DNA of 64,000 nucleotides from NCBI GenBank assembly GCA_965197645.1, contig OZ240219.1:832001-896000 (forward strand), in the 5' to 3' direction. The translations under genes were made by a program, and so were the position numbers. This document shows, one piece after another, positions 6,151 through 7,900 of the stretch. How positions within the stretch are numbered: the stretch's first letter is position 1; each line of letters starts with the position of its first letter. The notes under the pieces were generated by a model. The model saw only the letters and a program-made list of their open reading frames with translations. It made no database searches and had not been told where the DNA came from. This stretch comes from Dehalococcoidia bacterium (GTDB lineage: Bacteria; Chloroflexota; Dehalococcoidia; Plut-88900).

Positions 6151-6823
6151 CACAAGCTCCGTGAAGTACGCTCCATCGATCCTCTCGGCCGACTTTGCTC
6201 GGCTGGGCGAGGAGATTGCCGAGGCTACGGAAGCCGGCGCCGACTACATCCACGTCGACGTGATGGACGGCCGGTTCGTGCCCAACCTCACAGCCGGGCC
6301 GGTCGTGGTCCAGGCCGTGAGATCGTGGACCGGGCTTCCCCTGGACGTGCATATGATGGTAGAGGAACCGGACCGTTTGATACCCCAGTTCGCCGAGGCT
6401 GGTGCCGACATCATGACCGTCCACCCCGAAGCTTGCTATCACCTGCACAGGGTCATATACCAAATAAAGGACCTGGGCGCCAGAGCCGGCGTGGCCTTGA
6501 ATCCGGGAACTTCCATATCGGCCATCGAGGACGTGCTGCCGGACCTGGACCTGGTACTGGTGATGACCGTAAACCCGGGCTTCGGCGGTCAGAAATTCAT
6601 CGAATCCCTGGTGGGCAAGATAGCCCGCATGCGCCAGCGATTGGACGAACTGGGGGTCAAGGCGGAGCTGGAGGTGGACGGGGGCATCTCGGCGGTCACG
6701 GCGCCTCTAGTGGTGGAAGCAGGGGCCAGGGTGCTGGTAGCCGGTTCCGCGGTCTTCAACGATAGAGAACCGGTGGCTGATGCGCTGGCCAGGATCAAAG
6801 CCAGCGTAGAGAACGCTAGCTAG
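6143..6823 (+). CDS. rpe: Ribulose-phosphate 3-epimerase
   Basis: APSILSADF, HVDVMDGRFVPN, DVHMMV, MTVNPGFGGQ and EVDGG motifs; start may be 6161. Confidence 0.97.
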
Positions 6824-7692
6824 CCTTCCAACTCGGCGAGAAGCCGATCGAGGATGACCTTCACCTGCTCGAAGGAGGCCGCTCCCTGTATCTTCTCGTC
6901 GCCCACGAAGATCGTAGGGGTGCTGCTCACGCCCCTGTCAATAGCCAGAGCATTTCCGTCCCGAACTATCTGCAGGTGCCTCTGGGAGTCCAGGCAGGCT
7001 GAGAAATCGTCTGCATCGAGCTCCAACTCACCAGCGAAACCCTTGAGGTTGTCGTTTGAGTATGCGCCCGCGTTGTAGCCTCGCTGATTTTCGAACAGCA
7101 GGTCGTGGTAGTCCCAGAAGGAGCCCTGCTCGCCGGCGCACTCAACCGCCAGGGCGGCGCCGGTCGATTCCGGCCCGATGAAGGTGTAGTGGTAGTAGAC
7201 GATCTTGACCTTGCCGGTATCTACGTACTCCTGTTTGATCTGGGGCACCGTCCCGCGGGCCCATCTTCCGCAGTGCGGTCACTGGAAGTCGGAGAACTCC
7301 AGCATAGTCAGAGGTGCGTCGGCCGAGCCGAGGACGTTCCAACCCTGGGTGTCTGGGGTTGCAGGCTGGGGTGTCGAGGTGGCCTCGGAAATGGGAGTAG
7401 AGGCGGGCTGCTGTGTCGGCGTTGGGGTAGCGGCGACGTGTGTGGACATGGGCTGCTCAGTCGACGTTGGGGTGGCGGCAGCGTGTGTGGACGTAGGCTG
7501 CTCAGTCGACGTTGGGGTGGCGGCAGCGTGTGTGGACGTAGGCTGCTCAGTCGACGTCGGGGTAGCGGCAACAGGCGTGGAATCGGGTTGCTGCGTCGGG
7601 GTCGTAGTACCATCGCCGGACGTGCAGGCGACTATGACCGCCGCCAGAAGCAACAGTAGCGGGAACGCGAGTAGACGGTAGCGGGAGGGCAT
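6820..7692 (-). CDS. DsbA/BdbD-like thioredoxin-fold lipoprotein with in-frame TGA (probable selenocysteine, U-P-H-C)
   Basis: Track ORFs 7279..7692 and 6820..7248 are in the same frame. Reading through TGA (7281-7279) gives MLEFSDFQ-U-PHCGRWARGTVPQIKQEYVDTGKV...GVSSTPT; lipobox VIVAC at the N-terminus. Confidence 0.88.
7243..7262 (-). promoter_or_regulatory. Candidate bacterial SECIS hairpin
   Basis: mRNA GGGC-CCG-[CGGGA]-CGG-U-GCCC starts 16 nt 3' of the UGA, with a G-containing apical loop and a bulged U. Confidence 0.55.
7415..7570 (-). repeat. 45-bp tandem repeat (about 3.5 copies) encoding a Pro/Thr-rich linker, TPTSTEQPTSTHAAA
   Basis: Identical units at 7460-7504 and 7505-7549, with degenerate flanking copies. 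Confidence 0.9.
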
Positions 7693-7714
7693 GAGAATAA
7701 TGGCCTGACTGGAG

Positions 7715-7900
7715 CTAGACAGCGACCTTGTACTGGGTCCGGAGGCAGCGGGTGCATAGCTTCATCCGCTGTCGTTTGCCATCGACCCACAGGGTGACCG
7801 GGTGGACGTTGGGCTTGAACTGCCGGGGCGTGTGCCTCTTGGAGTGGCTCACGTTCCGTCCCATCCGGGGCACCTTGTCACATATTTCGCACTTGGCCAC
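7715..7900 (-). CDS. rpmB: 50S ribosomal protein L28 (Zn-ribbon type)
   Basis: CEICDK..GRNVSHSKRHT.RQFKPNV...LCTRCLR; divergent from the DAK2 gene. Confidence 0.96.
   Translation of the reverse strand: MAKCEICDKVPRMGRNVSHSKRHTPRQFKPNVHPVTLWVDGKRQRMKLCTRCLRTQYKVAV

Follow-up and report, generated by a model that had tools for sequence, protein, structure and literature searches.

Is the in-frame TGA within a DsbA-like gene of a Dehalococcoidia bacterium the end of a damaged reading frame, or does it encode the catalytic residue of a selenoprotein? The question arises on the minus strand of a 64,000-nucleotide stretch of contig OZ240219.1 (positions 832,001 to 896,000, assembly GCA_965197645.1), here called the window. 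We read the locus as one gene for an exported, lipid-anchored thiol-disulfide oxidoreductase of the DsbA type with selenocysteine (Sec) as the attacking residue, and give this reading a probability of about 0.88. From comparison with its homologs, the internal TGA is almost certainly read as Sec. The gene is a real selenoprotein and a slightly divergent addition to a family known since 2004-2005, for which a curated NCBI model exists. The type of recoding is thus already known. Less ordinary are two other aspects: neither VKOR nor DsbB is found in the 12 genomes of the taxonomic family of this organism, and the VKOR of one relative carries a TGA at its own active-site Cys.

Codon 138 and its counterparts in related genomes

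The gene runs from an ATG (7690-7692) to a TAG (6820-6822). When TGA is translated as Sec (U), the product has 290 residues with U138 as its single odd codon, and there are no other stops or frameshifts. The sequence around this codon is MLEFSDFQ-U-PHC-GRWARG and the frame stays open for 152 further codons. Five positions of the protein are Cys or Sec: C23, U138, C141, C185 and C233. Homology extends over both sides of the UGA. Pfam Thioredoxin_4 matches residues 120-282 (2.9e-31, 109.3 bits against a gathering threshold of 23.2) and DSBA (PF01323) matches residues 131-278 (6.8e-16, 59.1 bits against 25.6), and both alignments span the TGA. An earlier reading of the sequence alone (the sequence-only reading) had found the first Cys of the DsbA motif replaced in frame by a TGA and had described a DsbA-like frame of about 150 codons beyond it, with the loop GVSSTPT (residues 254-260); both observations hold.

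A standard listing of open reading frames (ORFs) breaks the gene into two pieces, one of 137 codons (7279..7692, ending in MLEFSDFQ) and one of 142 codons (6820..7248, from an internal GTG). The sequence-only reading expected gene callers to split the gene in this way, and for the downstream half they did. The 142-residue fragment is present in a public protein collection as a separate protein, while the exact 137-residue upstream fragment was looked for in that collection and not found. The public fragment is without signal peptide and active site, and its GTG start (7246-7248) falls within the hairpin described below. Because this fragment is the public entry and the curated model NF041057 just misses the gene, an exported redox enzyme is effectively missing from the databases and the selenoproteome is undercounted.

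The domain was searched for in 41 related genomes, and further loci were added later from a 301-genome sample of the phylum. Of the 41 related genomes, 23 have homologs, and the majority of these homologs contain a single internal TGA. In the first set of homologs the column of the first CxxC cysteine holds TGA in 33 of 39 rows and Cys in the other 6. In the enlarged set of 72 homologous domains the same column holds 44 TGA, 21 TGC and 7 TGT, and every TGA-bearing domain has that single TGA only. The relatives sought by the sequence-only reading, with TGA or TGY at exactly this codon, are therefore present, and they include a positional ortholog from another genus (G002, genus g3) that keeps U-P-H-C between the same neighbours (argH, rpe, rpmB and DAK2) at 47-48% identity.

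These data bear directly on the explanation that a Cys-type DsbA gene was hit by a nonsense mutation or a base-call error, which would make the locus a pseudogene or an assembly artefact. TGA is one base from TGC and TGT, and gene callers take it as a stop. Against this, the same TGA recurs in the 44 domains of many genomes and in the syntenic ortholog, the gene has no further defect, and an independent contig has the TGA unchanged with four differences elsewhere. The pattern of TGA and Cys in the homologs is what real selenoproteins classically show and excludes a nonsense mutation or sequencing error for practical purposes; we regard this explanation as very improbable. The independent contig comes from an RNA library and spans 7169-7430. 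None of its 4 differences lies at the TGA or in the hairpin, and it hints weakly at transcription. In two further studies the gene is covered by DNA contigs that are 95-99% identical to it; the unchanged codon 138 is read in the RNA-library contig alone. Metatranscriptome libraries (runs X10 and X11, labelled 'sponge metagenome') hold contigs 95-99% identical to positions 6700-7800 of the window, and close strains of the same region are also found in DNA runs of three other studies.

A quick maximum-likelihood tree was made from 70 of the 72 rows, two being dropped as identical or with fewer than 140 query positions covered. The 29 rows of the taxonomic family of this organism make one all-Sec clade with a support of 99 in the Shimodaira-Hasegawa-like approximate likelihood ratio test (SH-aLRT). 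The whole 70-row tree requires at least 6 to 10 changes between Sec and Cys. In one Cys-type gene (TGT) of the core NF041057 clade, L036 (G171:C147), the downstream hairpin sequence is the same as in its nearest Sec-type relatives (L033 and L037), as might be left after a very recent switch between Sec and Cys.

The gene lies between rpmB (ribosomal protein L28), which is on the same strand and ends 22 nt upstream, and the convergent rpe (ribulose-phosphate 3-epimerase), whose last bases overlap the TAG of the selenoprotein gene. The rpe ORF ends at 6823, so the two stops overlap and no intergenic space is left for a terminator. The outer neighbours are the argininosuccinate lyase gene (argH) and a DAK2/FakA-like gene. 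The arrangement rpmB-gene-rpe is common to this genome, G002 and genus g4. A paralog search of this genome returns a single match, the selenoprotein gene itself. In genus g4, three tandem Sec-type paralogs stand at the rpmB-rpe site (G003, L068:7605-9880, and eight further genomes). The x-x dipeptides are no longer alike among them (PG; SS or PS; PT, PS, GV or GI), and the paralogs form three clades that predate the species split.

Decoding of the UGA

Bacterial Sec insertion needs more than the codon, and the hairpin 3' of the UGA and the decoding genes were inspected in turn. The hairpin has the form GGGCCCG / CGGGA / CGG-U-GCCC, and the free energy of that structure is -10.6 kcal/mol. It is present as the sequence-only reading described it, 16 nt after the TGA. 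Like the bacterial selenocysteine insertion sequence (SECIS) of the fdhF type, it is a stem-loop that lies within the coding sequence and follows the UGA directly, here with a CGGGA loop and a bulged U. Unlike that element, it is a candidate that statistics on this GC-rich sequence alone do not distinguish from chance. The stem recurs in the G002 ortholog, there with the loop GGU. Other clades have different stems in the same zone (CUGGGCC/GGCCCAG, UCGCCCU/AGGGCGA and GCGGCUCA/UGAGCCGC), and their loops contain G. Since the register of the hairpin shifts between clades and no single structure line fits them all, folding energies of Sec-type and Cys-type genes were compared instead. Between +12 and +48 the mean minimum free energy (MFE) is -11.9 kcal/mol for 40 unique Sec-type sequences versus -5.8 kcal/mol for 28 unique Cys-type sequences (Mann-Whitney p 8.7e-9, a value that overstates the difference because the rows are related). 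Sec-type homologs have a stable hairpin in the zone after the UGA and most Cys-type homologs do not. The stem-encoded residues W-A-R/L-G are conserved in the Sec-type clade only, which would fit a limit set by the RNA on the protein at this place. The hairpin gains its support from this Sec/Cys comparison, and alone it is not above chance.

The Sec machinery, named as a check by the sequence-only reading, is complete in the genome, a single contig of 3.21 Mb with 60.8% G+C and no N. The tRNA-Sec with anticodon UCA is found by aragorn and by Rfam RF01852 (66.4 bits against a gathering threshold of 47). The genes selA (547.7 bits, cut-off 267.9), selB (346.8 bits, cut-off 242.25) and selD (379.7 bits, cut-off 125) are all present. 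Outside the window, selD itself has an in-frame TGA (SLAHCAG-U-ASKF, G000:C1:941874). An 8-bp hairpin with the loop GUA starts 19 nt downstream of it, a geometry similar to that of the window gene. That this organism has reassigned TGA, say to Trp or Gly, is barely credible, and nothing in favour of it was found. TGA is an ordinary stop here and terminates 320 of the 1015 ORFs with at least 400 codons; tRNA-Sec is the sole tRNA with anticodon UCA in the aragorn output, and the residue aligned with U138 in homologs is Cys. As a minor observation from the same output, the tRNA-Thr(GGT) at G000:C1:492888-492982 is 95 nt long and exceeds the other tRNA-Thr genes by about 20 nt, possibly from an intron or a miscall.

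We infer from the codon, the machinery and the hairpin at its expected place that Sec is actually inserted. When a ribosome reaches UGA 138, the mRNA hairpin 16 nt downstream would recruit SelB with Sec-tRNA(Sec), and Sec would be inserted with no termination. The UGA could also terminate most of the time and give a 137-residue lipoprotein stub, with the full-length Sec protein as a minor or selenium-dependent product. Sec insertion in bacteria competes with release factor 2 (RF2), and the stability of the window hairpin is modest. Yet the stub would consist of the signal peptide, the linker and one β-strand and have no active site, and the 152 codons past the UGA encode a protein sequence that is conserved in different families and classes. 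We consider predominant termination very unlikely.

Several points weigh against the selenoprotein reading. When the 70-nt region is compared with dinucleotide shuffles of this GC-rich sequence, z is +0.27 and 119 of 200 shuffles fold equally well; a second test gives z -0.44. Among 2000 resamplings with synonymous codons, 15-42% fold equally well. The unconstrained MFE fold of the 70 nt is another hairpin, which includes the A of the UGA. The nearest homolog among the 41 related genomes is only 47-48% identical, and the RNA-library contig may come from DNA. The match to NF041057 is 177.6 bits by hmmscan and 166.6 bits in the genome search, below the curated equivalog cut-off of 190.

A probably lipid-anchored DsbA-type domain

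The features of the gene and its product are listed in Table 1. The precursor starts with a signal peptide whose I-V-A-C23 fits the lipobox pattern, which we take to be [LVI][ASTVI][GAS]C. Counterparts of this motif are LVAAC in the G002 ortholog and VTVAC in the genus g4 copies. NF041057, named 'Rcas_1661 family thioredoxin-like (seleno)lipoprotein', aligns over nearly its full length (residues 13-283 with profile positions 2-246 of 247), including the lipoprotein signal and the U/CxxC domain. The genome contains both lgt and lspA. The lipobox, the match with a (seleno)lipoprotein model and the two processing genes agree with a lipoprotein and with the membrane tether proposed from sequence alone. 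The precursor would be exported, and Cys23 would be lipidated by Lgt, followed by LspA cleavage. The DsbA domain would then sit on a Thr/Pro-rich tether of about 89 residues on the outside of the cytoplasmic membrane.

Table 1. Positions of the selenoprotein gene and its features in the window
Feature	Position	Strand	Basis or remark
Whole gene, selenocysteine DsbA-like lipoprotein precursor (predicted)	6820..7692	minus	290 codons + TAG; TGA=U translation
UGA codon 138, almost certainly read as selenocysteine	7279..7281	minus	Homologs with TGA or TGC/TGT in the same column
Active site U138-P-H-C141	7270..7281	minus	Directly before helix α1
SECIS-like hairpin (7-bp stem with one bulged U; loop CGGGA)	7243..7262	minus	Starts 16 nt after UGA
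Signal peptide with lipobox, MPSRYRLLAFPLLLLLAAVIVA followed by C23	7624..7692	minus	Sequence; assumed lipobox pattern
Thr/Pro/Ala/Ser-rich linker, residues 24-112	7357..7623	minus	27 T, 15 P, 13 A, 11 S among 89 residues
45-nt tandem repeat (3.7 copies) for the repeated ATPTSTEQPTSTHAA linker units	7406..7572	.	Tandem Repeats Finder
DsbA-type thioredoxin-fold domain with helical insertion, residues 113-290	6823..7356	minus	AlphaFold2 model
cis-Pro loop G-V-S-S-T-P259-T, residues 254-260	6913..6933	minus	Sequence
Second cysteine pair C185/C233 in the helical insertion	6994..7140	minus	Domain columns C76/C124 invariant in 40 sequences

The linker has no Pfam match. Its tandem repeat (period 45, 90% matches, score 257) is the site of many differences from the close-strain contigs, and the tether sequence varies between strains.

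The domain was modelled with AlphaFold2 over residues 110-290 from a 40-sequence alignment, with a predicted local distance difference test score (pLDDT) of 95.4 and a predicted template-modelling score (pTM) of 0.90. The model has the thioredoxin fold, the helical insertion, the CxxC position at a helix N-terminus and the cis-Pro loop of DsbA-type proteins. The helix begins at domain residue 30, right after domain residue 29, which is U138. In the alignment the active-site columns C29 and C32 (domain numbering) are invariant, with a mean column identity of 42% across the active site, and the cis-Pro P259 (domain P150) is kept in at least 90% of the rows. The invariant pair C185-C233 is a probable structural disulfide. 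Foldseek finds Corynebacterium diphtheriae TsdA/DsbA and Bacillus subtilis BdbD as top matches, with template-modelling (TM) scores of 0.85-0.87, root-mean-square deviations (rmsd) of 1.7-1.9 Å and 30-33% identity. BdbD also gives the best sequence match in the solved structures (6.2e-23), and its CPSC stands opposite UPHC in the alignment. The fold, the BdbD match and the presence of lgt and lspA therefore point to a membrane-tethered DsbA-type enzyme.

BdbD (3eu3 and 3eu4) and the C. diphtheriae enzyme (4pwp and 7unn) share the fold and the position of the active site with the window protein. Like it, they work outside the cytoplasm in organisms that lack a classical periplasm. They differ in having Cys where the window protein has Sec, and a reoxidase partner is not found in this genome. 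The partner of BdbD is the DsbB-type BdbC, and that of the actinobacterial enzymes is VKOR. Escherichia coli DsbA, with the active site C-P-H-C, shares the P-H dipeptide, the DsbA fold, the helical insertion and the cis-Pro loop. In contrast to it, the window protein has Sec in place of Cys30, Thr instead of Val before the cis-Pro and a predicted lipid anchor instead of a soluble form, and it matches NF008198 weakly (19.1 bits).

Among known selenoprotein families, NF041057 is the closest. Its members are also lipoprotein precursors with a thioredoxin-like domain and U/C-x-x-C, with Sec and Cys forms mixed across the phylum. The window protein differs in its score below the cut-off, in its long repeat-bearing Thr/Pro linker and in its place in the quick tree, where it groups with the VKOR-paired DsbA-like genes of its class on a branch apart from the core of members above the cut-off. 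With the same model the G002 ortholog reaches 150.4 bits. In the table of a 2026 review, NF041057 appears as 'DsbG-like protein', UxxC, among the selenoproteins predicted with high confidence (PMC13188914). The consulted text of the Sargasso Sea study describes DsbG-like selenoproteins (COG1651, UxxC), previously reported as a candidate, and nine sequences of DsbA-like form 1 (PF01323/COG2761, UxxC) (PMC1088965). Like form 1, the window protein has UxxC on a DsbA-like fold, a PF01323 match and a SECIS candidate directly after the UGA. It differs in fitting Thioredoxin_4 better than PF01323, and that part of PMC1088965 does not describe form 1 as a lipoprotein.

Direction of catalysis and the reoxidase

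Sec138 and Cys141 would cycle between a selenosulfide and a selenol/thiol pair, in exchange with the cysteines of exported proteins. The direction of this exchange is a separate matter from Sec insertion. In seven genomes from other taxonomic families of the same class, the homolog (Cys-type in five, Sec-type in two) is followed immediately by a VKOR gene. On account of this pairing we argue that the ancestral role is disulfide donation with VKOR as the reoxidase. An ancestral disulfide donor, that is an oxidase, appears somewhat more likely than a reductase or isomerase.

The gene content of this organism speaks against the oxidase direction. VKOR (PF07884) and DsbB (PF02600) have no match in the genome, and a class-specific VKOR hidden Markov model (HMM) run against its six frames gives a best E-value of 0.46. 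Neither protein is found in any of 12 genomes of this taxonomic family (0 of 12), several of which are single contigs. The only membrane thiol-redox carrier found in the genome is the reducing CcdA. This sole DsbD_TM/CcdA gene (G000:C1:1669483-1671167) directly follows lgt, and the pieces of the Pfam profile match in swapped order (45-215, then 5-36), consistent with a possible circular permutation.

The same selenoprotein may therefore work in the reverse direction, kept reduced by CcdA, as an extracytoplasmic reductase or isomerase like DsbG or ScsC. The missing VKOR and DsbB and the presence of the CcdA gene agree with this. ResB, the usual partner of CcdA in CcdA-linked cytochrome c maturation, was searched for in the genome and not found. 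Chains of ScsC and DsbG are also among the sequence and fold matches, though weaker, and Thr precedes the cis-Pro as in DsbC and DsbG. On the other side, the best relatives in both structure and sequence are the monomeric oxidases BdbD and C. diphtheriae DsbA/TsdA. The window protein has no dimerisation domain, only a disordered linker; the seven class homologs are paired with VKOR, and the P-H dipeptide is that of E. coli DsbA. We regard a reductive role as plausible but less likely. For the present-day enzyme, the gene content suggests either recharging without a dedicated partner, which we slightly favour, or a function that is now reductive via CcdA.

A wider scenario for the taxonomic family is speculative, and we hold it with considerable doubt. 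In the 12 genomes the Sec-type DsbA may have become uncoupled from a DsbB or VKOR reoxidase. Selenium chemistry could allow direct recharging by O2 or small oxidants in an aerobe with a heme-copper oxidase, which is present in this genome, or the enzyme could have been rewired to the circularly permuted CcdA. Tandem triplication with diverging x-x dipeptides would then have followed in the sister genus, while a relative that retains the DsbA-VKOR pair appears to have Sec in the CxxC of VKOR as well, and its whole disulfide relay would then run on selenium. A general link between Sec and the lack of VKOR is unsupported. Among the matches listed, 17 genomes have TGA-bearing NF041057 matches, 9 with VKOR and 8 without, in a comparison where the TGA column is confirmed solely for the rows with loci. 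The tallies over the 301-genome sample are 121 of 301 in the NF041057 survey and 163 of 301 in the VKOR survey. They include unpublished genomes (G262 and G181 in the former; G208, G181 and G077 in the latter), whose sequences were not used and on which no other claim depends.

The gene adds a well-supported extracytoplasmic selenoprotein for an aerobic member of Chloroflexota. It is also a natural system for asking what selenium brings to a DsbA-type enzyme, a question that the absence of VKOR and DsbB across the whole taxonomic family, if real, makes sharper. In model proteins, replacement of Cys by Sec is reported to speed oxidative folding, according to the consulted part of PMC5514408.

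The VKOR directly downstream of one Sec-type DsbA-like gene (G018:C216, L026:2016-2510, plus strand) has a TGA at the first Cys of its CxxC. It reads AI-U-PWC where six other VKORs of the class have AICPWC, AVCPWC or AICPYC, and a strong hairpin follows the TGA (-17.2 kcal/mol over 45 nt). This gene is a candidate for a VKOR that contains Sec, predicted in one genome only, which is in 260 contigs with 9% contamination. The NCBIfam selenoprotein models have no match to this VKOR, and VKOR is unmentioned among the selenoproteins of the 2026 review (PMC13188914). A literature search for a Sec-containing VKOR gave nothing relevant among the titles listed, which deal with ferroptosis or other eukaryotic subjects. 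A second VKOR with an in-frame TGA, in a fusion gene of G250:C5 (L082:1472-2929, minus strand), was rejected. Its TGA falls within a membrane helix instead of at a Cys position, and therefore probably marks a defect or an error and not a Sec codon.

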